DNA of 63,188 nt, filler included, from Collodictyon triciliatum (GCA_043381765.1; 11 parts of 11 records of this genome joined end to end with filler, not necessarily neighbours in it); one strand, 5' to 3'; shown: positions 13,586-52,941, numbered from the whole stretch's first letter. Notes: a model not told the origin generated them from the letters alone. A program made the numbers and translations.

Positions 13586-14165
13586 ACTATAATATACTTT
13601 TATTTTAATTTTTTTTTTTAGTTTACTTTGGCTGCCCTAACAAATATCTCAGAAAAATATAACAAAGAAGGGTGTTTTTCAATTTAGCGCAGTGATTCGC
13701 AATAAGCCTTTCGTTTTTGCTTCGTTCTGTTGTGTCTTTTCGCTTCCGCGCGCCCATCTTTTGACAGACCGGCCCAATGATGACAATTCTGGAAAACAAT
13801 GATTTTACTCCACAAACACCACAGTTTATAAGCAGCCGAATGCGCCTTTGTCAGATCCAACCACAGAAACCAACGATCTGACTTTTTTTCACAGCCCCCT
13901 TTCGCCTCTACTGCTTAAAAGCTTCAGATTCTCAGCCTTCCAACAAAACAACAAAGCAACAAAACAACAAAACACAACAATAAAACACAACAGCAATAAT
14001 AACAAACTGTAGAAACAAGAATGAACAGATACGTGAGAAAACCAAAGCCCTTAATGCCCGACACATCCCCAGCTCACTAAAGCGACACCAGAGCCACTCA
14101 ACACACCATCCCAACAGGACTACCTCAAGAGCCAGAAAGAGAGTCAGAAAGAAAGAAAGAAAAAG

Positions 14166-14554
14166 ATGCTTTTCCGGTCACTCTTCAGAACACTGCTTCC
14201 CAAAACCCCGCTGCACCAGCAGACAACCTTCGCATCGGCGTTCTCCACCAGAGGCTCGGGCCTTTCTTCCGGAAACGGACACATCGACTATGAAAAGCAT
14301 CTGACTCAGCTGGGCTCAAAGGTCTCTGCGCCGTCCAACCCAGAAAACGCTGCGCTGGAAACCTGCCCGAATCCATATCTCTCAGACCCATATGTCATCC
14401 GCTTCACCTGCCCCGAATTCACCAGCCTTTGTCCCATCACGTCGCAACCGGTGCGGTTCCAGTTTTCTGAACGAAGCACAATCTATACTCTTTCCTACTC
14501 TGATATCTTCTCTTTCGTCGTCTTTCAGGCCTTTTTTTTTTCTTTCACCTCCCT

Positions 14555-14616
<62 letters not shown>

Positions 14617-15196
14617 TTGTTGTTTGCTCAAGTATGGCATTGCTGCTGCTTAGGACTTTGCGCACATTGTGATTGACTATGTACCCCGCAAACTGATTGT
14701 GGAGAGCAAGTCCCTCAAGTTGTACATGCAGTCCTTCCGCAATCATGGCTCGTTCCACGAGGCGTGCACTGTTTCGATCGGAAAGAAGCTTGTGGACCTG
14801 CTTGACCCTCACTTCCTTCGCATCGGCGGGTAAGAACGACCTTTTTTTTTCATTTGTACCCACATGTTTCTTCATTTCTTCATATCTTCATTTATTTATT
14901 TCCTTCTAATTCAGACACCAATCCAACATTTTTCTACTTATCTACTCATTCAATCGAACGATTTCTTTCTTTTCTCTGGTTCCATCGCGATGAATACCGA
15001 ATGTTCTAATTGGAGCAATTTCCTACTCGTTTGTCGTTGTTTTATCTTTATATATATATATATATATTCTATTTCGAATAGGTATTGGTACCCAAGAGGA
15101 GGAATCCCCATCGATGTGTTTTATCAAGCCGGCGAAGTGCCGAAAGGTGTTTGGCTCCCCGACCAAGGTGTGCCTGGATACAGAGGCCGCGGATGA
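14166..15196 (+). CDS. queF: NADPH-dependent 7-cyano-7-deazaguanine (preQ0) reductase QueF, type I, with an N-terminal mitochondrial-like presequence; 3 exons, 191 aa
   Basis: Exons 14166-14450, 14654-14829 and 15082-15196 are joined by GT-AG introns with matching phase. Motifs: [24 protein letters not shown], the QueF signature [23 protein letters not shown], and [18 protein letters not shown]. Confidence 0.95.
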
Positions 15197-15782: not shown

Positions 15783-18427
<2,645 letters not shown>

Positions 18428-19104: not shown

Positions 19105-22100
19105 TCACAGGTGCGAGTCATACGCCGAAAGATAAGCCGCGGATCTGCGGTGATGGGACTGAGCAGACGCAGCCGGGGCGGAAAGCGGCGCAGAATCCAG
19201 GAGCGAAACAAGATTCTCGTTGAGGCAAACAAGACAAGCCTGTTCCGGCACGCAATCGGCGTGGAATGCGTGGCCGCACGGGAAGGCAACAAGATTCGAG
19301 CCCATGGTGTGATCTGCAAGGCCGACTTCGCAGACTGGGCAGAGACTCCGCATGTCCACCACGGCACCCCAATGCTGGGCGCTGGCTTCTTCCCACTGGA
19401 ATGCGATTCCGCGGCCGTATTCGAAGCCGAGCGAGTGGATGGCTCCAGGCGCGGCGTTTGCTGTGAGAAATGCGAGCGTGTCGAGTTCGCCGCGGGTCTC
19501 CTTGTCCAGCAGGCCGCGCAAGGGCGGCGCAAGAGTGAGCGTCTTGATGGACCACAGATGGCTGTCAAGCACTTCCATCATGTTGCGCACAACCACGCGC
19601 TGATGTCGGTAGAGTTGGTGCAGATGCAGCAGTTTGCGGCAGATCACACGGGCTTCCCAGCTTGGGAGCGAAGCCTCGGACTGGAGTAGTTCCATCACAT
19701 ATGCAACCCCAAATTGCAGGACAAGGACATTCACCACCCGCTCCCATGTGATTCCGCTGGCGGAGTCTGCGCTCGCTCCTTGCATCGCTTTCTCAGCCCT
19801 GCTCTCTTGTTCTGGCTTGGAATCTGACTCCGACTCCAACTCTGACTCTGTTTCAGTTCGTTTGCTCAGATGCGCAAGCACCAGTTGCCACTCGACCGGC
19901 GTTCCGCTCTGTGCAAGGAATGCAAGCAATCCGCTCCAGTCGTCTGCACAGAAGAACAGATCCACGAGATCCGCGTGACGGCCGGATCGCTGGTACAAAA
20001 GCACAAGTCCTGCGTAGTAGCCTGTCTCTGCACACACTCGGGTGGCGTGCTCTGCGCTGTAGAAAAAGACGCCCGGATTCCCAAGGATTTGCATGAGGAG
20101 AGGATGGTGCGGCCATTCTGCAGATGCGCACTTGGATGCATTCGTGTTGCGGTGTTTGCTGTCGCTGCTGTCGAGCGGGCCAATGTGCGGAGGCGGATTC
20201 TCATGCAGGAGCGCTTCAATCCAGCAGTGGACAATAAACGTGTCCTGTCGGCTCACTAGGCGTGTTTCCATCAGGCGCATCAGAAACGACAGGACATGTT
20301 GAGGCTTGTGCGTTTGGATCCAGTGGTATGACAGGTGCGGGTGCAGCTTGTTTGCGGATCGAATGGCAAAGTCCACCACCGCAGAGGCGCTGATTCCCAC
20401 GATCACACGCTTGGCAACGCTCAAAACAGTGCACTGGTCGTCCAGATCGTTGAAGTACTCTACGGCGCTGAGGATGCTTTCGGTTCGGATCAGCGCAAGT
20501 ATGGCTTCGATAGCAGCTGTGTGCTCACGCGTCTTTTCGGCCTGTGCTACGATGGCCTCGATGCTACTCCACCGATGCTCTCGAATACATACATCGACGA
20601 TTCGTGCGTGGTCCAATACGTGAAAGTGCTTGCCGATAAATATGTGCTCTGCGCTTTCTGAGTCCTCACGAAGCATCCCAGATACAGATTGGTAGTCTCT
20701 GCAGATGAATAGCTCTGTGAGTTGTTGGGATATCGCATAAGAGTTGGTCTGATCAACTGCATTTGAATTGGCTTTAATTTCAGGGCCGCTCTGGGCTGTG
20801 CTTGCAATTACGTGGGCCTTTTCCTTTCCGAAATTGACGATACTGTCACCCTGGGAAGTTGGATTTGTGATGACATCCTCCAGTGTCGATGCTGGTGTAT
20901 TTTCAGCAGTAACGCTCACGGCTGGCAGAGCAGAACCTGCTGTTGCTGAGGAAGGCGCAGGGATGTTTGAAAGATTTTGTGGGGGTGAATTTCCGATATT
21001 TGCCTCCGGTACGTTAGCTTTGCGTCCCTGGTTGCTGCCTCCCGAACTTGCTGTGTGATGTGGCTTCAGAACGTAATCACCAAATATTGAAAACTTTCTC
21101 GATGCAGCTTGAGCAATTCCTTTCATCTGTTGTTGGGGTTGTTGGAATTGTTGGAATTGTTGTGATTGTTGTGATTGTTGGGATTGTTGTGATTGTTGGG
21201 ATTGTTGTGATTGTTGTGATTGTTGAGATTGTTGTGGTTGTTGTGATTGTTGTGATTGTTGTGGTTGTTGTGATTGTTGTGGTTGTTGCAAACTTTCTAT
21301 CTCCGTGTTTATGTCTGTTCCATTCAATACGTTGACATTACTATTGGGTACCGATACCTTGGGTTGGTCTGGTGTTATCGAGCCCACTTTTTCAGTATCT
21401 GCAACAATCGCATTAATATCGCCACTAGTCAGATTAGAAGTTACACTTCGCTTAGAAAATACCGGCGATTCGATCTGATGCTCAGTTGTGAGTCTTCCTT
21501 CGCCTTCCATCATAGGCGAGATCTGTGCACCAGCAGCCGGCTTACTATTTACCATTTTTTCGGTTGAATTCAAGTTTCTCTTGGGTATCAAAGCGGTATC
21601 CTCTCTTGGCAAGGGGGGTGATAGGATTGTGTCATCTCCTTGGCTACGCTGCGAACTTGGACCGGAGCTCAAGCTCGATGGTTGCGTATAAATTGTGGAT
21701 ACATTTGATGGAAGTACGGCAAAGTTTTGAGGTGCAAAAGCTGTGTTTGAAGATCCAGCTTGTGAGCTTGCCCTCTCACTCTTTGATACGATGCCCGGGG
21801 GAAGGATGTCTGTGACTCGAGACTTTGTACGCTTGGCCCGAGGTTTTCTGGCAAATGTAATGGATTCCAGGTCAAAGCCATCTCCGTGCCCGCTTAAACC
21901 TGCTGCTGAAACTTCCATATTAGATTGGTCCAGACCTTCAGCTTTTGGTTGCAAAGATTGTAATCCTGATGTTTCTAGATGTGGCGTGGTTGAGATTTGG
22001 TCTTGTGCAGGAACTTCTGAGTTTCCGGTAGCTTCCTGAGAGGCCGTTTTTTGAGTCAGTACCTCATTTGAAGAGATGGCCAAAGTGGCTGGGTCAGCCT

Positions 22101-24098
22101 GTTCGTCATCAAAAATCATCGATGGCGGGGCAGGTTCGATGTTAAGGTTGTACTTCTGCGCTATTTGCTGGTTTTATTTACAAAAAGAATAGATTAATAC
22201 TCCATAGATTGATGAACCAAAGGGTAGGATGAACTCTCACATTAAGAGAGCAAGTAGTTGTTGTGACAAAACAGATTGAGAGAAAAAGTGCAATATTCCA
22301 TGGGTTAGCATCAAGATATGGATTCACCTGGATGTCATCTAGCAAAGGGGAAAGGGTTAGGTCTTTGACTCGGCAACGCTCCACCTCACGGTACAGAGAC
22401 GTAATTGCACTGGGATTTTTCAGCCTGTACCGATTCAGTAAAGTGACGCATTTTTGGAATTGCGCTGACCGGATGTAATCCACAGCCAGAAGCTCAGGGT
22501 CATATGCTTGGACATGGCATATGGAAAAGCCACTGCGATACAGAACATAGTAGGAGTTCCCAACAGTGCACAAATCGACAAAGTTTTGGAGACCGGAATG
22601 GAGGATATTGATTTCGATATTGTTTACGTCGATGATACTGACATAGTTGTCTCCATATACAAGCATGTTATCGCAGAATGGGGCTACTCGACCGAAGTTG
22701 AATCGTGGAGGCACAGTCACTTTGAGCCCGCTTTCATCCAGGATTGGTACGCGTTGGTCACTCGTCACTTTAAAATTCAGGGTGTTGAGGACACGGCCTG
22801 TAGAAAGCTCTGCTACCCACACACGGTTCCCTGGGCGACTACTGAATAACACGCCTGAGCGAGACGGATGGAAACAGGCTCCGAAGAACCCGTCTCGGGT
22901 CTTTGTCCCAACCTGAATGGCGATGAGCTTCGTCAGCTCGAGGATGAAACTGCGTGTCAAGGTGGAGACGACTAAACATTCTGCGTTGTAGTCAAGTTGC
23001 ACAACACGCGAGTCGGACTGGAAAAGAACTTCGGTGTGGTTGCCCGACGCAAGGGACAATATTTCCCCAGTCACATCCCGGCCGAGAAACTGCCTCATGC
23101 CAAACTTTTTCGACTTGGAGATGCGTGTGATGCAGATGACACCATTGCTATCTGCAGAGAAAAGCCTGCGCCCTGCGTCATCCCATACAATATCTGTGAT
23201 CTCAGCGTCCTTGTGCTCTTGCACTCGATATAATAGCTATGCGTGGGAATAATTATTCAGACATTTCGAGTTTAATCTATATATTTATGATTCATATAGG
23301 GAAATATAAACCAACCACACGTGGGTTCAAGCCACAGTAAATAAAGTGGACAAAAAACAAACAACAACCACGCATACTCACCCTGTCTTTGCTCTTCATA
23401 TCTTCGATGGCCATCAACATAATCACCACTTGACCGCCCTCTAATGCCATAGCAACGATGCGCTCGTCTAGAGCAAAACGAATGCAAGTTACTGCGCCTT
23501 TCGACTGAGGAATCGGACGCAAGTGCATAAACTTCATGTCGCTACGATTGAAGTAGTAAAGTGCTGCAGAGGAACCTCCCAACACAAGGTAGTTTTGCGA
23601 GCAAGCAACTGCAGAAAACTTGACCTTGGACGAGCTTATTGGCTCCGGATACACAGTCAATCTCATCACTGGCCCTGGAAGCAGAAGTCCGCCATCAGAC
23701 TCGGACGAATCGTCCCCATCAAAAGTCGACGTTGTGGTTGCGGTTGCTGAAATCGATGAACCGTAACTTTCGCTTTCTGTGTGCGTGTTCGTGCGTGCAG
23801 ATTGTGAATCGGTGGCGTCTGTTTCGGTTCCTGTTTCAGTTGTTGTAGTGGCGTCCGTGGTTTCATCGCCGTCGGCTGAGTCAGCATGTGTTTCAGCGTG
23901 TGTTTCTGTCTGGGTTTCTGTTTGTATTTCTGATTCGGACTCGGCTTGTGTTTCTGTCTGGGTTTCTGTTTGTATTTCTGATTCGGACTCGGCTTGCGTT
24001 TCTGTTTGTGAAGTACTTTGGGAGCCGCTCTCTGCTCTTGTCTCAGCTTGCGTTTCGGTCGCGGTGTGGCTCGTTGATTCGTCGTTGGATTCGTCCAT
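19105..24098 (-). CDS. HPS5/TECPR2-like protein: N-terminal WD40 propeller, long low-complexity linker, helical region and C-terminal RING-H2; 3 exons, about 1560 aa
   Basis: Exons 24098-23382, 23236-22328 and 22167-19105. Motifs include FSAVACSQNYLVLGGSSAALY, DSRVVQLDY..LVVSTLTRS, VGTKTRDGFFGACF and RPGNRVWVA, as in the HPS5/TECPR2 N-terminus. The C-terminus reads CPVC..FPCGHAFHADC..CLVC. Confidence 0.8.
21133..21290 (-). repeat. Coding 9-bp repeat giving (QQS/QQP)n in the HPS5-like protein
   Basis: TTGTTGTGA-type units on the + strand translate to QQPQQSQQPQQSQQS... Confidence 0.9.
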
Positions 24099-30739: not shown

Positions 30740-33700
30740 TTAGTCATGGTAAATAGGAGGGTCAGCCAGCTGCCGTAGTAGAAATCTGTTGGGCTGAGAT
30801 GAATTTGCCATATCAGACGAGACTTTGTCGCCAATAAGCGTTGAATGGGACGTCCAAATAAGATGAAGAACAAACATATGTTTTTCATCATCTAATTTTG
30901 GAATCCAAACATAGATAAATCCATTTTCACCAGTGGTTATGAGTGTCTTGTAATCAGTGTTATATTTGACCGCACGCACTTGGTTATGAATCTGCTGCTC
31001 GAGTAGCATTCCATCTCCATGTTTCTTCACATTCAATATACGTAAAAATCCGTCACGACAACCAAAAACGACATATTCTTCGGAGTTGAGTGTCATCGTA
31101 TCATACGCATAGATAGGTGTTTCGCCTTCATACAGTATCACCTGATTTGACCGGAGTGCATCAAAAGAAAAATCAAACCGATAAAGGAGTCCAGCTTCAT
31201 CGCCTACAATCACAGAAAGGTTGTTATCACCATGGTATTTTGTAAAAATTGGTTCATTTGGACTTGTAAATCCGTCTTCTAGTTCATGTTGAATAATAAG
31301 GTCATCAGAAATTTCCAATCTTCCGTTTTGGTCGTTGTATTTGACCTCTTTGCACGTAATGCTTGATTCATCGCATATAAATATCATTTTTTTGTCGGAT
31401 AATATCTTCAGCCCAAATGAATTTACAGAATCATTCACTAACTTGGTCCTATCGTGCTGATATATTTTTGGATATTCATGACCCTCCAAATATTCCTCAT
31501 ACAACCTCACAGCATACAACCCCTTATTGGTGGAGTAAAGCATAAATTCCTCTACATCAGTGTGGAGGGTGAAGTGACGGATTCTATCGGTGTCTTCGAC
31601 AAATAAACACGGGTCGGTGTCATATTCAAGTGGAGTCAGTTCGAATATTTTTTTCTCTTCAGAGCTTAGTTGAAAATATACTTTAATTTTTGAGACTGCA
31701 ATGGTTGCGACAAGCGACCGAACCATCCCATCTACTACTACTGTTTTTAAACAATTGCCGGTAGAATATTCCCATACCTTGATTTTCCTATCGCTACTTC
31801 CAGTTACGATGACCTTTGATGATTCAAGTAGCCTGTCGATTTCGGACCCCCCTACAGAGGTACTTTTGTAACCCATTTCTGAATCGCATGTTGCTACCAG
31901 GGACAATGTATTGATAGCTTTTTGATGCCCAGAAGCCTTCTTCAGAAGCTCTCTTGAACTTATGCTCCAAATCCATGCCGACTTATCTTGACTACAACCC
32001 AGCAAGTAGTATTCTTTTTCATATTTGAATACATTCATGTGTGAGATCTCTCGGGCGTGTCCGTAAAAAGGTCTAATTATCACTCCCTCATTCACATTCC
32101 ACATATAAACCATGCGATCAGCTCCAGAGGAGATCAAATAATCCGAATTGCCTGTATCTGAGGGAACCCATTGGATGTCACGAATCCCCTTTTTGTGTTC
32201 ATCTTTCAATTTGATAGGCTTAGAATTTAAAAAGTCCGTGTCGAAGATTAAAACCTCGCGATCTATAGCAACTGCAATTTTATACCGATTTTGATAACTA
32301 ATAACCCGAATTGCTCGGACTTGCATGTTTTCGGAATTCAGGAGCAAAGGATCGCCTAGAGAAATGGTTTTTGTATTGGAATCAAAAAATATTTCATGAT
32401 ACTCAATATGCGGCAATGTACCTCCAAATATGATGTATATTTTGTCTTCTTTCTTGAAAAAATTGAGAGAGTTTATCGAGCCGCTATATTTGATTTGTTT
32501 AATCAGTAAATCTTCGATATTGTTATAAGATATCTTTGGGTCATACAAAAAGAAAGCCAAAGTTCCATCCATGGTGCTAACAGCAAAAAAGACTTCAGGA
32601 TTTTTGGTCAGTCCGAACAAGTCATCAATATTGTCGCTGCATTGTATTTCAAGAATTTGACCACCTTTCAAAAAGTCTGCTGGTATTACTATCTTTTTTG
32701 AACACATCGTGGCGTCCCATATGTAAATGGCACCCGTCTTATCTCCACTGATTATAAAAGTATCGTTCTCCTTCTTCACTAAAGATATTGCAGATATGAT
32801 TCCGCTGTCGTGGCTCATATTCACCAATGATTCGCAAGTATCCAAATCCCAAGCTAAAATCATATTATCAGATGCTGTGTAGAATTGCACAATCTCATCC
32901 GTTGCATATATTGCAGCGTAATTTACGGGGAATTTATGGACGAGTTTTGGAAGCTGCCCAAAATTCACCTTGTCGAGAACAGCCTTGTCAAATTTGCATC
33001 CTCGTAAATCAGCATCCTTAAATGTAGATCCAGTCAAATCAGAAAAAGAGAAGTCCACATATTGTAAAACAGACTGAGACAGATCAGCTTTCGGAATGCG
33101 TATATTTCGAAAGTCTTCTTTGTGAATTGGGATTCTAGCAAAATTCAGAATAGTAATGGCGGAACTAGCCGACTTTGCAGATTCGTTATGATGGCTTCTG
33201 CTTGAAGAATCTTTTATGATTCTTACCAACTTTTTTCTGAATGATTCATGTCTAGAGGCATAATCAGCAATAAACTGTTTTACAACGTGGTCTTTCTCAT
33301 CGAGCAAAGGGAGAATATTCAATTCTTTGGTTCCATTTTCTCCCCTAGCAGCATTAATTTCTTTAATAGCCAGTTTGGCGAGAAAGAATTCATGAATGGA
33401 GCGATGCACAAAGCCATAATTCTCTTGGGTGGCAGTGCTTTGAAATTTCCTTATCAGGACTCCCTTTCGGGTTTCATTTAACTCGAATGTGTTGCCAAAA
33501 AACATTGCCCACTTATCCCCACCACGGCCACCACCGCTCGACCTTTGAACTTGAGCCACAACAGCTCTATTTTCGAGGAGTTTTCTTGCAAAAAGCATGG
33601 AAAAATCCTCAAAGGTTGTAGTATTGAAGTATTTAGGGATTATCGAAGCATCAGACATCTTCTTGTGCCAAAAGTCAACAAATTTTTCGTAAATATCATA

Positions 33701-36502
33701 TCGAGATAGCTGCATGTGAGAGTCTAATTTTCTTTCGTGCATGTATTTTGGAAGAACTTTCATAATCAAGGATAGAATGAAGGGAGATTGCGAAGACTCC
33801 TTTAGACTTGGCGATCTAAATATCTGAGAAGTAATGGTTTCGGTGGAATATATAGTTTCAGGGTTGAGACCAACATACTGTCTCACATATTCTTCAATCT
33901 CAAAGTCTCCAAAGGGCTTCACTATGATATACTGAGTTGAACTCTGGTCCCATTCATTTCCAAGGCCAAATAATTCGTCCAAATCTCTTCTTGTCTCCTG
34001 AAGATTGTACCGATATGTGATAATAACATGATGCTTTTGAATGAATGATTTATTCTCACGAATTATCTTAAGTGCTCCCGCTTCATTTAGTTCGTCGTAA
34101 CCATCCATAATGAAAACGACTTTTCCATGCCTTTCAATCATTTCATATTCTGATGGAATGCTCTTTTTTAAATAATCCTTGATGTTTTTTGGATTTTCAA
34201 CAACCGGCAGGTTGATGAATATAGGGTAAGCCCCTGTCTGTTGCAAATAGAGCTTTCTTAGCCGATCTGTCTCTTTTTTAACAAACGTAGACTTTCCCGA
34301 CCCTGATTTACCCAGGACCACAAGCGTTCCAGGAGAGTCGTTCAGGAAGCTGTCGACCAATTTTTCAGCCACTTCAATGTTTTCATCATTAATGTTTCTA
34401 TATGCATTAATTTGTACATATACACTGTCCTCCTCAGCTTCATGTTGGTCATTAACGTTTGAGTTTTCAGAAGACGAGCTATGGGCTATCTCATGAGTTT
34501 TTATCTTGTTTTGGTAGTCTTCAGAACCTGTTTCAAATAAATTTGTGGGTATACTCTGCTCATCTGTTCTTGAATTAATAATGTATAACTTTTCGAGATT
34601 TCGACCAAAATCTCTTTCAACTAAGTCTATGAATTGATTTCTAGGCGATTTCGGTTGCATTTTGTAGGCCTTTTCATTACTCCTCTGCAGTATATTCTTT
34701 ACAGCTCTGGAATAGATGTCGTTGGTAATGAGCTTACGGAGATGGTGAATGACATGAGTGCCGTAATATGGCCTTTGCTTGCTGATAAAAAGGTCACTTG
34801 TCATTTCCTCAACAATAGAAAAGGAAAATTTAGAACAATCCCTGACAGGTAACTCAGCCAAGTGTATGAATTCCACCACAACAAACCATGCGAATTCGCT
34901 TGTCTTATCGGTCTCAAAAATATATTCAGCAAATACCTTGGCATCGTGTAATTTGTGGGCCAGAATCAAAGACCTAAAGAATATGAAATTATCGTACCAG
35001 ATTTCACGGTCACGCTCCTTAATAAACCTCCTTCTTGTAGAGTGATATACATCTATTACACTATTTGAGCTTGATGGTTGTTCTTCCTCGATTTCAGAGT
35101 AGTTTGTGTACTTATGATTCTTTCCTGGCATCTTTAATTTTTCTTCCTGGTATTTTATGTGAAAGGATTTCCCACCAAACAAGCGAATAAGGCCTTGATA
35201 AATCTTTTCAAAGACTGGATTCAGTTCCGGATTAAGATTGTGCGGTGACTGCACCAATGTCTTGCAGATGCGGTCATAATCATATTCTTCCTTGCCCTCT
35301 TGACTTAATTTTAAATGGAAATTTTTTATAGCGAGAGAGTCCAACAAAAACCCAAAAGCAATCATCATATCTGTACTGCTGTTGTCCCAGTAAGGGTTAA
35401 CACTGAGCATAACGACCTTTTTGATCGCACAATATATTAACTGTTTCAAGAACCGGTCGAAGACTGGTATATCAATGAAAAGAATAGACCGGGCTACTGA
35501 TTGCAGGAAATTAGGATCAGTTGATAGTAGTGTATACATCGCCCCGTCTTTATTATGATGTCTTTTTCCAGATTTTACCTCTGAAGTATCACGTTTCTCT
35601 TCTCTTTCTTTCTCTACTCCTTTTTTCCCACCTTCTGCATCGTCACCCATTTTCTCTATCTCAGATGCTTCGACTTTTTCCTTTGCTTGTCGAGCCAATA
35701 TTTTCCACAATTGAAAGCAAATGACCTTTTGATGACTTTCAGCTAAAATCCCGAGTTCAAAAACATCTCGGACAGCAACATCTTCGTTAGCTGCCTTCCT
35801 TAGGATATGAAGAACGAGTGGCATGTGACTAGCACCTTTGCCGAAGCGAATGAGATAAGCAATCTCTAGGAGGTTTCTGGGTGCGTGGGGTAAGATAAAA
35901 TTTTCCAATTCGAGGAAAGTTTCTCTAGTACTGAGTGATTTTTGCACAGGTCCTCCATCACTTTCTTTATCTGTCTTGGGGTCTTGTGTCTTCATTTCAT
36001 CTTCTCCTGAGATTCTTGTTTGTCGGCTATCAGAGGCGACAGCATCTTTATTATCAGGACTTTTTTTCTTATCTGATTCCTGCGTTTCTTTATCTCCTTC
36101 GTCCTTGTGGGATTTTTCTATTGCTTCGGATGATATAACAACATTGGGGCGGCCTGAAGAGAAAGTGTTTCCTCCTCCACGTATACGAGGGGATATGAGG
36201 ATGCAAGGTTGTCTATACACATCACCCTGACTTGTCAAATACGGAGTCTTTGCCCAATCCAACGAAACAAATGCGTGGTGGTGTATCATTTTGTATAAAA
36301 GGTGCTGGTAATTTGTAGATTCTTGCATATGAGCCCACAAGAAGGAGCTCAGATATGGTTCTATAATCACCTGTGCTGGAAGCCACTCACTCAGGTCAGT
36401 GGGGCTCCTCACTTCTGCCAGGATAGTACATTCGTCGCTGGTGTTTGGACCAGAGCCCAGACGAATTCGGACATAGTCTTGATCGTTGAGTTGGGTCTCC
36501 AT
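30740..36502 (-). CDS. Intronless STAND/NLR-like protein: unknown N-terminal region, NACHT NTPase, pentapeptide repeats and WD40 repeats (1920 aa)
   Basis: Walker A VLGKSGSGKST, Walker B VFIMDGYDEL, PFILSL, winged-helix YGFVHRSIHEFFLA, SAITILNFA, pentapeptides ADLSQSVLQYVDFSFSDLTGSTFKDADLRGCKFDKAVL, and WD motifs such as LISSGADRMVYMWN and VTGSSDRKIKVWE. Confidence 0.9.
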   Translation of the reverse strand: METQLNDQDYVRIRLGSGPNTSDECTILAEVRSPTDLSEWLPAQVIIEPYLSSFLWAHMQESTNYQHLLYKMIHHHAFVSLDWAKTPYLTSQGDVYRQPCILISPRIRGGGNTFSSGRPNVVISSEAIEKSHKDEGDKETQESDKKKSPDNKDAVASDSRQTRISGEDEMKTQDPKTDKESDGGPVQKSLSTRETFLELENFILPHAPRNLLEIAYLIRFGKGASHMPLVLHILRKAANEDVAVRDVFELGILAESHQKVICFQLWKILARQAKEKVEASEIEKMGDDAEGGKKGVEKEREEKRDTSEVKSGKRHHNKDGAMYTLLSTDPNFLQSVARSILFIDIPVFDRFLKQLIYCAIKKVVMLSVNPYWDNSSTDMMIAFGFLLDSLAIKNFHLKLSQEGKEEYDYDRICKTLVQSPHNLNPELNPVFEKIYQGLIRLFGGKSFHIKYQEEKLKMPGKNHKYTNYSEIEEEQPSSSNSVIDVYHSTRRRFIKERDREIWYDNFIFFRSLILAHKLHDAKVFAEYIFETDKTSEFAWFVVVEFIHLAELPVRDCSKFSFSIVEEMTSDLFISKQRPYYGTHVIHHLRKLITNDIYSRAVKNILQRSNEKAYKMQPKSPRNQFIDLVERDFGRNLEKLYIINSRTDEQSIPTNLFETGSEDYQNKIKTHEIAHSSSSENSNVNDQHEAEEDSVYVQINAYRNINDENIEVAEKLVDSFLNDSPGTLVVLGKSGSGKSTFVKKETDRLRKLYLQQTGAYPIFINLPVVENPKNIKDYLKKSIPSEYEMIERHGKVVFIMDGYDELNEAGALKIIRENKSFIQKHHVIITYRYNLQETRRDLDELFGLGNEWDQSSTQYIIVKPFGDFEIEEYVRQYVGLNPETIYSTETITSQIFRSPSLKESSQSPFILSLIMKVLPKYMHERKLDSHMQLSRYDIYEKFVDFWHKKMSDASIIPKYFNTTTFEDFSMLFARKLLENRAVVAQVQRSSGGGRGGDKWAMFFGNTFELNETRKGVLIRKFQSTATQENYGFVHRSIHEFFLAKLAIKEINAARGENGTKELNILPLLDEKDHVVKQFIADYASRHESFRKKLVRIIKDSSSRSHHNESAKSASSAITILNFARIPIHKEDFRNIRIPKADLSQSVLQYVDFSFSDLTGSTFKDADLRGCKFDKAVLDKVNFGQLPKLVHKFPVNYAAIYATDEIVQFYTASDNMILAWDLDTCESLVNMSHDSGIISAISLVKKENDTFIISGDKTGAIYIWDATMCSKKIVIPADFLKGGQILEIQCSDNIDDLFGLTKNPEVFFAVSTMDGTLAFFLYDPKISYNNIEDLLIKQIKYSGSINSLNFFKKEDKIYIIFGGTLPHIEYHEIFFDSNTKTISLGDPLLLNSENMQVRAIRVISYQNRYKIAVAIDREVLIFDTDFLNSKPIKLKDEHKKGIRDIQWVPSDTGNSDYLISSGADRMVYMWNVNEGVIIRPFYGHAREISHMNVFKYEKEYYLLGCSQDKSAWIWSISSRELLKKASGHQKAINTLSLVATCDSEMGYKSTSVGGSEIDRLLESSKVIVTGSSDRKIKVWEYSTGNCLKTVVVDGMVRSLVATIAVSKIKVYFQLSSEEKKIFELTPLEYDTDPCLFVEDTDRIRHFTLHTDVEEFMLYSTNKGLYAVRLYEEYLEGHEYPKIYQHDRTKLVNDSVNSFGLKILSDKKMIFICDESSITCKEVKYNDQNGRLEISDDLIIQHELEDGFTSPNEPIFTKYHGDNNLSVIVGDEAGLLYRFDFSFDALRSNQVILYEGETPIYAYDTMTLNSEEYVVFGCRDGFLRILNVKKHGDGMLLEQQIHNQVRAVKYNTDYKTLITTGENGFIYVWIPKLDDEKHMFVLHLIWTSHSTLIGDKVSSDMANSSQPNRFLLRQLADPPIYHD

Positions 36503-52010: not shown

Positions 52011-52941
52011 NNNNNNNNNNNNNNNNNNNNNNNNNNNNNNNNNNNNNNNNNNNNTTAATTAATTAANNNNNNNNNNNNNNNNNNNNNNNNNNNNNNNNNN
52101 NNNNNNNNNNGTTTAGTGCGCCAAAGCCCTATTGAAGGCAGGGGGAAACCCAAACACGACGGATGTGAATGGCCTTTCGCCCATCGACTACATAGACAAC
52201 AAAAACGCGGGTCTCACAGAGGTTCTGACGGAAGGTACACTTATCACCCAGCGCCTTTGCCGTTGAGTATGGTTTCTGATTCTGACCGCTGTTTTTCCTG
52301 CAGCCATGAAGAACCCGCTTGCTTTCCAGAGTCGTCTCCCAGTGTCTGCATATTAATAAACATTCATCAACCTTGTACCACCTTCGTCATTATTTGCCAG
52401 CCAAATCCAAAGGAATATCGAGCTTGCGGACGATGCTAAATGTCATCAGTCCCGTGCATTGCGCCTTTGGCGCTTGGGATGGAGTATTTAGATAGATAGA
52501 TAGAATGGTGGATAGAAAGATAGATAGAAAAAAAAGCCAAGAAATGGATGTATAAAACCACGTGATAAATATCTCGCACAAGAAGCGATATCACACAATT
52601 AGGTAGCTAGATGATAGTAGCCATGATATATTTTGTGGTTCTCTTCATTTATTAAAGAATGTGCTTGTGACAGAAACGTGATGGACGCAACGACATTGCG
52701 ATTTGCAAAGTAAAGCTTCTGTTGCAAAGGCGTGGTTGAGGATGAGAAAAAAAAATATAAAACGAAGCTCCATATTGTGTCTTTCCCTTCTTATGGGCTT
52801 TTTTTTTCTGGTGGATTCAAGCGAAGAGAACACGACGGCAATCCTAAAAGCCAATATAGAAGAGTCGGACCAGGGAAGAAGCGCCGACAGTTCCAGTTGA
52901 TATCGTTGCAGACAGTCACACGGCGCGTTGGTCAGGCTGGC

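Follow-up and report, generated by a model that had tools for sequence, protein, structure and literature searches.

A spliced nuclear gene for QueF in the protist Collodictyon triciliatum, with a sequence of alphaproteobacterial type and a candidate mitochondrial presequence

Only bacteria are held to make queuosine, while eukaryotes salvage queuine, as the relevant passages of PMC5372724 and PMC12301720 state. What, then, is the role of a gene for QueF, the reductase that converts preQ0 to preQ1 and an enzyme that eukaryotes are commonly said not to possess, in DNA from the freshwater protist Collodictyon triciliatum (GCA_043381765.1), where might its product act, and from what source did it come? 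The gene lies at 14166-15196 (+) of a stretch of 63,188 nucleotides, filler included, which we refer to as the window; it comprises three exons and encodes a QueF of the unimodular kind. The gene is nuclear and active: it is expressed, and its first intron is spliced. As a whole, the explanation that we favor, with moderate confidence, is that its product is a mitochondrion-imported QueF, derived from a bacterial source of alphaproteobacterial type, which would feed preQ1 to a mitochondrial tRNA pathway.

The frame that opens at 14166 is interrupted past codon 95, and the 191-residue product is obtained by joining 14166-14450, 14654-14829, and 15082-15196 on the + strand into a coding sequence of 576 nt. 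Exon 1 (14166-14450, +; codons 1-95) encodes an N-terminal leader and the start of the QueF domain, including the catalytic Cys89 (14430-14432), and is supported by translation, by a match to TIGR03139 at residues 61-95, and by RNA contigs. Exon 2 (14654-14829, +) supplies Asp96, the QueF motif from Glu112 to Tyr119 (14702-14725), His130, Glu131 (14759-14761), and Cys133, as located by PF14489, TIGR03139, and mapping onto the solved structure 4F8B. Exon 3 (15082-15196, +), placed by translation and alignment, encodes the C-terminal tail of a long-tailed QueF type and ends in a TGA stop codon at 15194-15196. Both introns begin with GT, end with AG, and have a GC content of 0.30; GC at third codon positions is 0.64 in the coding sequence and 0.38-0.79 in four neighboring open reading frames (ORFs). 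Intron 1 occupies 14451-14653 (+; 203 nt) and contains an uninterrupted run of 59 T at 14557-14615. Intron 2 occupies 14830-15081 (+; 252 nt) and is placed by homology: its junction restores the sequence GGYWYPRGG, of which W150, P152, R153, G154, and G155 (numbering of the orthologue from Diphylleia rotans) are invariant in 40 aligned relatives and G148 and Y149 at least 90% conserved. Reading on from an in-frame stop further upstream, the first ATG in this frame is that at 14166. Because the next methionine, residue 120, lies past the catalytic Cys, no shorter functional product could begin at an ATG.

Contigs of four public RNA or probable-RNA runs (X1-X4) were compared with positions 13700-14520. 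A metatranscriptome contig of X1 spans 14117-14425 without a difference and begins 49 nt 5' of the ATG, which gives a minimum 5' untranslated region of 14117-14165 (+); there is no in-frame ATG between the upstream stop and 14166. A first-pass annotation of this DNA, made from its sequence alone, had listed a transcript starting downstream of the first ATG as a point that would count against its reading; the X1 contig starts upstream of that ATG. Contigs of X2, X3, and X4 part from the genomic sequence at 14450/14451, and what follows in them is the beginning of exon 2; intron 1 is thus removed as modeled. In two of these runs the contigs (981 and 690 nt) carry four differences over 14172-14451, and the third joining run is a poly(A)-selected metatranscriptome. 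Over 13700-14116 no RNA contig was found other than short low-complexity contigs at 13941-13992 (X2 and X3), which we took for repeats. Two upstream ATGs in another frame, at 14021 and 14054 (+), open ORFs of 19 and 8 codons, and would matter only if the 5' untranslated region extended that far.

Several lines of comparison place the product in the QueF family. Exon 2 matches PF14489 at 5.6e-23 (81.4 bits; cut-off 27.3). TIGR03139, the NCBIfam equivalog for unimodular preQ1 synthase, has a cut-off of 86.9 bits: exons 1 and 2 scored separately reach 35.4 and 75.9 bits (2.2e-21 for exon 2), and the whole D. rotans orthologue, 87% identical, reaches 145.4 bits. The nearest solved structure is QueF of Bacillus subtilis (4F8B; 1.8e-34). 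In the relevant parts of PMC5372742, the family-defining features are given, in B. subtilis numbering, as Cys55, Asp62, Glu97, which anchors the substrate, a QueF motif E(S/L)K(S/A)hK(L/Y)(Y/F/W) that includes Glu78 and serves NADPH binding, and a protective Cys99 present in 61% of unimodular QueFs. In the window protein, Cys89 and Asp96 align with Cys55 and Asp62, both columns being invariant in 40 relatives; residues 112-119 read ESKSLKLY, matching the motif; and Glu131 and Cys133, within FHEAC, correspond to Glu97 and Cys99. The index of the PDB chain is shifted by one relative to the published B. subtilis numbers, judging from residue identity. The protein's 191 residues suit a unimodular enzyme, whose one T-fold domain comprises fewer than 200, and an AlphaFold2 model of the orthologue, built from a 40-row alignment, presents one compact beta-alpha domain from about residue 35, predicted with confidence (mean predicted local distance difference test score, pLDDT, 81.8). 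As all the family-defining residues are present, we file the protein as QueF; judged by its sequence, it has an intact frame and every catalytic residue, and the enzyme itself is an ordinary QueF, its catalytic activity being predicted. B. subtilis QueF (YkvM; 4F8B, 4FGC, and 5UDG) shares its fold family and chemistry, with Cys55, Asp62, the Glu78 motif, Glu97, and Cys99 conserved, but has no leader, and its alignment stops at residue 165 of the orthologue's 185, leaving the last 20 residues, the tail of alphaproteobacterial type, unmatched. Apparent fusions of QueF to TGT among the protein matches were set aside as frameshifted gene calls from high-GC bacteria.

The best match to the window protein is itself eukaryotic: a 185-residue transcriptome protein of Diphylleia rotans (EukProt EP00002 P006592; P0004 here), known as an unannotated transcriptome ORF, which is 87% identical over 157 aligned tree columns. 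This one protein points to kinship of the window organism with D. rotans (Diphyllatea, CRuMs). The mature parts agree at 130/146 positions and share the same tail and active site, whereas the D. rotans leader, 39 residues with an R-x-F-A site, is six residues shorter and identical at only 17/48. N-extended QueFs also occur in cyanidiophytes, namely Cyanidioschyzon merolae 10D (P0013, a 'hypothetical protein, conserved' that scores 150.3 bits with TIGR03139) and Cyanidiococcus yangmingshanensis (P0011). These red algal proteins are likewise eukaryotic and long-tailed, with a basic N-terminal extension of 39-53 residues; their identity to the D. rotans protein, however, is 58-63%, and in free trees their clade stands apart. 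Five further N-extended proteins were found (P0093, in a 90% identity cluster with P0010, and P0059, P0007, P0054, and P0076). Among the best 88-150 matches per search, the taxonomically assigned eukaryotic holders belong to only two lineages, the window organism with Diphylleia and the Cyanidiophyceae, and a HMMER search of 1.84 billion representatives (4487 matches at E <=0.001) returned no further clearly eukaryotic lineage among its best 150. Sixteen of those 150 were inspected and rejected: in 15 the match starts well inside the protein, and P0352 has an insertion near its C-terminus. To judge by their sequences, these are bacterial proteins whose start codon was assigned too far 5', or else sequences of poor quality. 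Metagenomes were scanned with a pair of degenerate DNA patterns that encode peptide stretches peculiar to the window protein and Diphylleia, and neither pattern gave a match. Of 284 rows, 14 have an Asp two residues before FHE; eight of these are N-extended and six bacterial, and since the window pair is not among them the residue is no clean shared marker. Separately, in a set of AT-rich and probably marine QueFs (P0086-P0091), the protein is extended at its N-terminus by about 45 residues rich in Lys and Asn, and the tail closes with NYKAR or NYKPR; two of them, P0087 and P0090, occupy basal positions in the long-tailed subfamily.

From which bacteria might such a gene derive? The motifs that the first-pass annotation described at the start and end of the mature part are present as it gave them, and its description of the tail as alphaproteobacterial in form is fair, on sequence comparison, for a subfamily, but not as an exclusive marker. 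Among bacteria, the best matches to the D. rotans protein are 70-77% identical and come from Hyphomicrobiaceae, Govanella, Rhodospirillum, Tepidicaulis, Benzoatithermus, Filomicrobium, and Brevundimonas, the gammaproteobacterium Steroidobacter being the sole taxonomically assigned best match from outside the Alphaproteobacteria. A scan of one genome per prokaryotic species gave at least 600 pattern matches and at least 584 confirmed loci; the best 80 of these comprise, by title, 74 Alphaproteobacteria, four unclassified Pseudomonadota, one Halopseudomonas metagenome-assembled genome (MAG), and one Spirochaetales MAG, a sample that is biased since the scan patterns came from the query. In an even draw of 151 Pseudomonadota genomes, 30 hold the long-tailed type (E 4.2e-61 or better), 77 a shorter match without the tail, and 31 weak matches that fall, almost without exception, in frames of about 280-340 residues; 13 have no match. 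Long-tailed unimodular QueFs of Alphaproteobacteria, for example those of Brevundimonas vesicularis (L001), a Hyphomicrobiaceae MAG (P0105), and Govanella unica (P0110), are about 70-77% identical throughout the mature part, down to a C-terminal tail that closes with YRGRG; unlike the window gene, they have neither leader nor introns, and the bacterial gene often sits beside tgt or near queC. In a Hyphomicrobium genome (G002), queC lies about 4 kb from queF, and in a genome titled Rickettsiales MAG (G005) queE and queC overlap by 4 nt (L123, 818-2178), as do queA and tgt (L126, 1501-3659). A different architecture, a QueF of about 231 residues behind a helix-turn-helix domain (PF01381, PF13560, or PF13443), is seen in P0006, P0008, P0009, P0026, and some 40 more metagenomic bacterial proteins.

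Four trees were built: a FastTree tree of 311 rows, an IQ-TREE LG+C20 tree of 93 rows from a quick search, and two IQ-TREE trees of 61 rows, one from a quick search and the other, on 157 columns, from a careful one; proteins that were frameshifted or cut short were excluded, as were redundant genera and two very long outgroup rows. In the careful tree the window protein pairs with its D. rotans orthologue (100/100), the red algal clade includes P0059 (100/93), and the backbone is a polytomy. The window pair stands beside two bacterial MAG rows (97/80, with the bootstrap unsettled at a correlation of 0.928) inside an alphaproteobacterial group (85/94), on a stem of 0.58 changes per column. The eukaryotic groups form one clade in none of the four trees and in 0/200 bootstrap trees of the careful search. 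Approximately unbiased (AU) tests reject none of the arrangements tried: one clade of the five named eukaryotic rows in the 93-row set (p-AU 0.623, the held-together tree lying 13.2 log-likelihood units above the short free search) and, in the 61-row set, one clade of six eukaryotic rows (p-AU 0.303), one clade of all nine N-extended rows (p-AU 0.333), and a clade of the 48 bacterial rows without any N-extended row (p-AU 0.352). For the maximum-likelihood phylogeny that the first-pass annotation had proposed as a check, then, the free trees lack a single eukaryotic clade, and the AU tests reject neither such a clade nor a position outside the bacteria.

On this evidence we lean slightly towards a later horizontal transfer, in which one or several alphaproteobacteria, as prey or intracellular symbionts, would have supplied the gene after the mitochondrion was established, with leader and introns added later; QueF may have reached red algae and diphyllateans independently, or passed from one to the other. 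The free trees split the window pair from the red algal clade and put both within the alphaproteobacterial radiation, the eukaryotic distribution is patchy, and the window protein is a flat 70-72% identical to many alphaproteobacteria, with no basal position. A Rickettsiales MAG row (L056) adjoins the red algal clade in two of the four trees, the FastTree tree and the 93-row quick tree (Shimodaira-Hasegawa-like approximate likelihood ratio test, 93), although in neither of the 61-row trees. Set against such a transfer are the AU tests, which do not reject a single eukaryotic clade, and the absence of a close bacterial donor among 5.8 billion proteins, where the bacterial match most similar to the orthologue reaches 77% identity. 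Since no close donor was found and the stem of the window pair is long, the sequences indicate that the gene was acquired before the split from D. rotans and not recently; the recent transfer from one modern bacterial genus that the first-pass annotation had envisaged as a challenge to its proposal finds no support.

Where might the product act? The first-pass annotation described about 40 extra N-terminal residues with Arg4, Arg8, Lys13, and Arg29 and no acidic residue before Asp41, and both translation and a comparison with bacterial starts bear this out. In the window protein 45 residues precede LTQLG, and in the D. rotans orthologue 39. An LTQLG-type motif is carried by 109 annotated bacterial proteins among the 119 best near-length relatives, with a median of eight residues before it (range 2-57); 45 residues against this median amount to an extension of about 37. 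The extension (about residues 1-37; 14166-14276, +) is a candidate mitochondrial presequence by composition and heuristics, with a possible site for the mitochondrial processing peptidase after Arg29-Gly30. Residues 1-40 contain four K/R and no D/E, an acid-free run with a probability of 0.024 if D+E were as frequent as in the mature part (13/146), and S+T makes up 0.28 of the leader as against 0.12 of the mature part. Simple patterns of our own pick out a single R-2 site, at Arg29, and two phi-x-x-phi-phi motifs. Residues 1-30 of the orthologue have a pLDDT below 50 in the AlphaFold2 model. Together, composition and model support a leader that lies outside the fold and has the matrix-targeting composition first read from the sequence.

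Comparison among relatives points the same way. The contrast in identity between leader and mature part, in sequence terms, is the pattern expected of a targeting peptide that is kept for its composition rather than its sequence; presequences are commonly poorly conserved in sequence while their composition is retained. In each of the nine N-extended rows examined, whether eukaryotic or candidate, the leader has more basic than acidic residues. A signal peptide was rejected because there is no hydrophobic core, the longest purely hydrophobic run being three residues. A plastid transit peptide was set aside for the window protein: diphyllateans have no plastid and are non-photosynthetic, so the mitochondrion is the natural target. 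The cyanidiophyte leaders, by contrast, could also be plastid signals, as their host has a plastid.

How might a mitochondrial QueF operate? We propose that a bacterium with the long-tailed QueF type typical of Alphaproteobacteria was the source, and that since the transfer the gene has gained two spliceosomal introns and the N-terminal extension, most likely a cleavable mitochondrial presequence. The precursor would be imported and cleaved near residue 30, and in the matrix the T-fold enzyme would use NADPH to reduce the nitrile of preQ0 (7-cyano-7-deazaguanine) to the amine of preQ1, by way of a thioimide on Cys89. The preQ1 would pass to a pathway of bacterial type (bacterial-like TGT, QueA, and QueG), be inserted into mitochondrial tRNAs with GUN anticodons, and then be matured; either bacterial prey or QueC/D/E of the cell itself could supply the preQ0. 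In this scheme the import, the site of cleavage, the partners of the pathway, and the origin of preQ0 are inferred. The mitochondrial DNA of D. rotans encodes 27 tRNAs, enough for all amino acids (PMC4779616), so mitochondrial tRNA substrates exist.

The downstream steps have a published parallel. According to the relevant parts of PMC12301720 (Genome Biol Evol 2025), Chloropicon has nuclear genes for YhhQ, a bacterial-like TGT, QueA, and QueG, all predicted to be mitochondrial, with red algal relatives of this pathway, notably in Galdieria; import of preQ1 into mitochondria and completion of the modification there are proposed for Chloropicon and some red algae. As with the window QueF, the genes are nuclear and bacterial in origin, serve steps towards queuosine, and are scattered patchily among eukaryotes, red algae included, but the published pathway starts from imported preQ1, without mention of QueF, and is unreported from CRuMs. 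By analogy, the idea of targeting is plausible and now has a precedent, and QueF would extend the pathway of Chloropicon and red algae one step upstream, to preQ0. The ancestral mitochondrial queuosine pathway suggested by the first-pass annotation is thus partly matched: such a pathway has been published, but the portions of PMC12301720 that treat its TGT attribute this enzyme to Chlamydiae (Manna and Harman 2016 as cited there), which makes the published pathway a mosaic.

Four points weigh against the proposal. The leader heuristics are weak: over residues 2-12 the hydrophobic moment, a simple measure of our own, comes to 0.69, which 10% of shuffles reach, so that as sequence evidence they agree with a presequence but are no proof of one. 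The RNA contigs were compared over 13700-14520 only, and intron 2 has support from homology only. QueF has no occurrence in the text of PMC12301720. And in tblastn searches of the 63-kb window with bacterial QueA, Tgt, two QueC types, QueE, and QueG (YhhQ was not queried), no other queuosine gene was found, the best E being 0.076. A wider search, with a 220-residue QueA piece from a Rickettsiales MAG against longer proteins of the protein collection, was uninformative: the best 120 of at least 8000 candidates, swamped by bacteria, included no EukProt or red algal entry. One entry in this context, P0218, is a 675-residue QueA-TGT fusion labeled 'tgt [Symbiodinium microadriaticum]' on an 822-kb contig, 72% identical to the same QueA piece; it is either bacterial DNA in the assembly or a sign of another eukaryote with bacterial-type queuosine genes.

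The first of these points would also suit an extension that is no mitochondrial signal at all, with an enzyme that is cytosolic or dually located, its N-terminus a disordered appendage, and its preQ1 destined for another use, such as a promiscuous eukaryotic TGT. Amphipathicity is not significant against shuffles in either the window protein (0.10) or the D. rotans protein (0.18), and the leader is poorly conserved. Yet poor conservation of sequence with composition kept is what presequences usually show, and chance alone would seldom leave 40 residues free of acid, nor is a cytosolic appendage the ready expectation when basic residues outnumber acidic ones in all nine N-extended leaders and when the downstream enzymes of Chloropicon are predicted, in PMC12301720, to be mitochondrial. 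We therefore regard this alternative as unlikely.

The first-pass annotation had gone further and proposed the gene as a candidate relic of the mitochondrial endosymbiont. On this reading it descends directly from the alphaproteobacterial ancestor of the mitochondrion through endosymbiotic gene transfer, and the last eukaryotic common ancestor already had it, most later lineages having lost it. The sequence is indeed of alphaproteobacterial type, two distant eukaryotic groups hold the gene, each with a leader, and the relevant part of PMC12301720 suggests an ancient origin for the downstream pathway. Both arrangements that such descent could take, a single eukaryotic clade and N-extended rows outside the 48 bacterial rows, are not rejected by the AU tests given above. 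The 157-column tree, however, does not bear the claim out, with its polytomous backbone, its lack of a eukaryotic clade, and a window pair within alphaproteobacterial rows; two named eukaryotic lineages alone would require very many losses; and the bacterial-like TGT of the pathway is, according to the same paper, chlamydial. The gene is too short and too conserved for an endosymbiont relic and a later transfer to be separated, but we consider the relic doubtful, and a little less likely than a cytosolic enzyme. Less probable again is the broader notion that QueF is an alphaproteobacterial heirloom that survives in diphyllateans and cyanidiophytes, such that some eukaryotes make preQ1, and perhaps queuosine de novo if QueC/D/E are present; if true, it would go against the textbook rule that eukaryotes only salvage queuine.

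That the locus is bacterial contamination or a dead insertion, as identity of about 70% to bacterial proteins might at first suggest, can be dismissed, given its intact frame and full set of catalytic residues, two GT..AG introns of host-like composition, spliced RNA that includes a poly(A)-selected library, and eukaryotic genes on both sides.

What is new here is the setting: the gene lies in the nucleus of a eukaryote, a CRuMs protist, has introns and a leader of mitochondrial type, and concerns the step that precedes the published mitochondrial pathway. The proteins themselves are already in public databases under automatic names. A full-text literature search, which did not extend to the supplementary trees (Fig. 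S5) of PMC12301720, found no paper on a eukaryotic QueF; those trees may bear on the origins of QueA and QueG. If the favored explanation of a mitochondrion-imported QueF holds, eukaryotic queuosine capability is pushed one step back, to preQ0, and a third eukaryotic group, a deep-branching heterotrophic lineage, joins the mitochondrial pathway. It also raises a testable question: are the mitochondrial tRNAs of these protists modified from preQ0, and is that preQ0 made by the cell?

The remainder of the window offers a few further observations. The genes around QueF, of ordinary eukaryotic kind, are those for UDPGP, RING, Aa_trans, HPS5, CN_hydrolase, profilin, PP2C, Band_7, and CBS; Rfam gave no match to the window at gathering score. 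At 19105-24098 (-), three successive frames carry HPS5 beta-propeller and HPS5 TPR domains (1e-34, 6.6e-14, and 1.1e-07), and probably belong to a single gene of several exons, whose product would be a BLOC-2-type subunit carrying long inserts rich in Q, S, and T. A single frame of 1920 residues occupies 30740-36502 (-), in a region of 37-39% GC, and by eye shows a P-loop (GKSGSGKS) with WD-like repeats after it. Many long homopolymers and microsatellites are spread over the window, for example as poly-Q, poly-N, poly-Y, and poly-I in frames at about 16100-16400, 25300, and 27250. A CT-rich low-complexity block of about 1.4 kb lies at 50641-52066 (+), with an AT skew of -0.69, a GC skew of -0.47, and an N run at its end; N runs (assembly gaps) lie at about 12400, 30540, 52060, and 58280, several short ones beside simple repeats.

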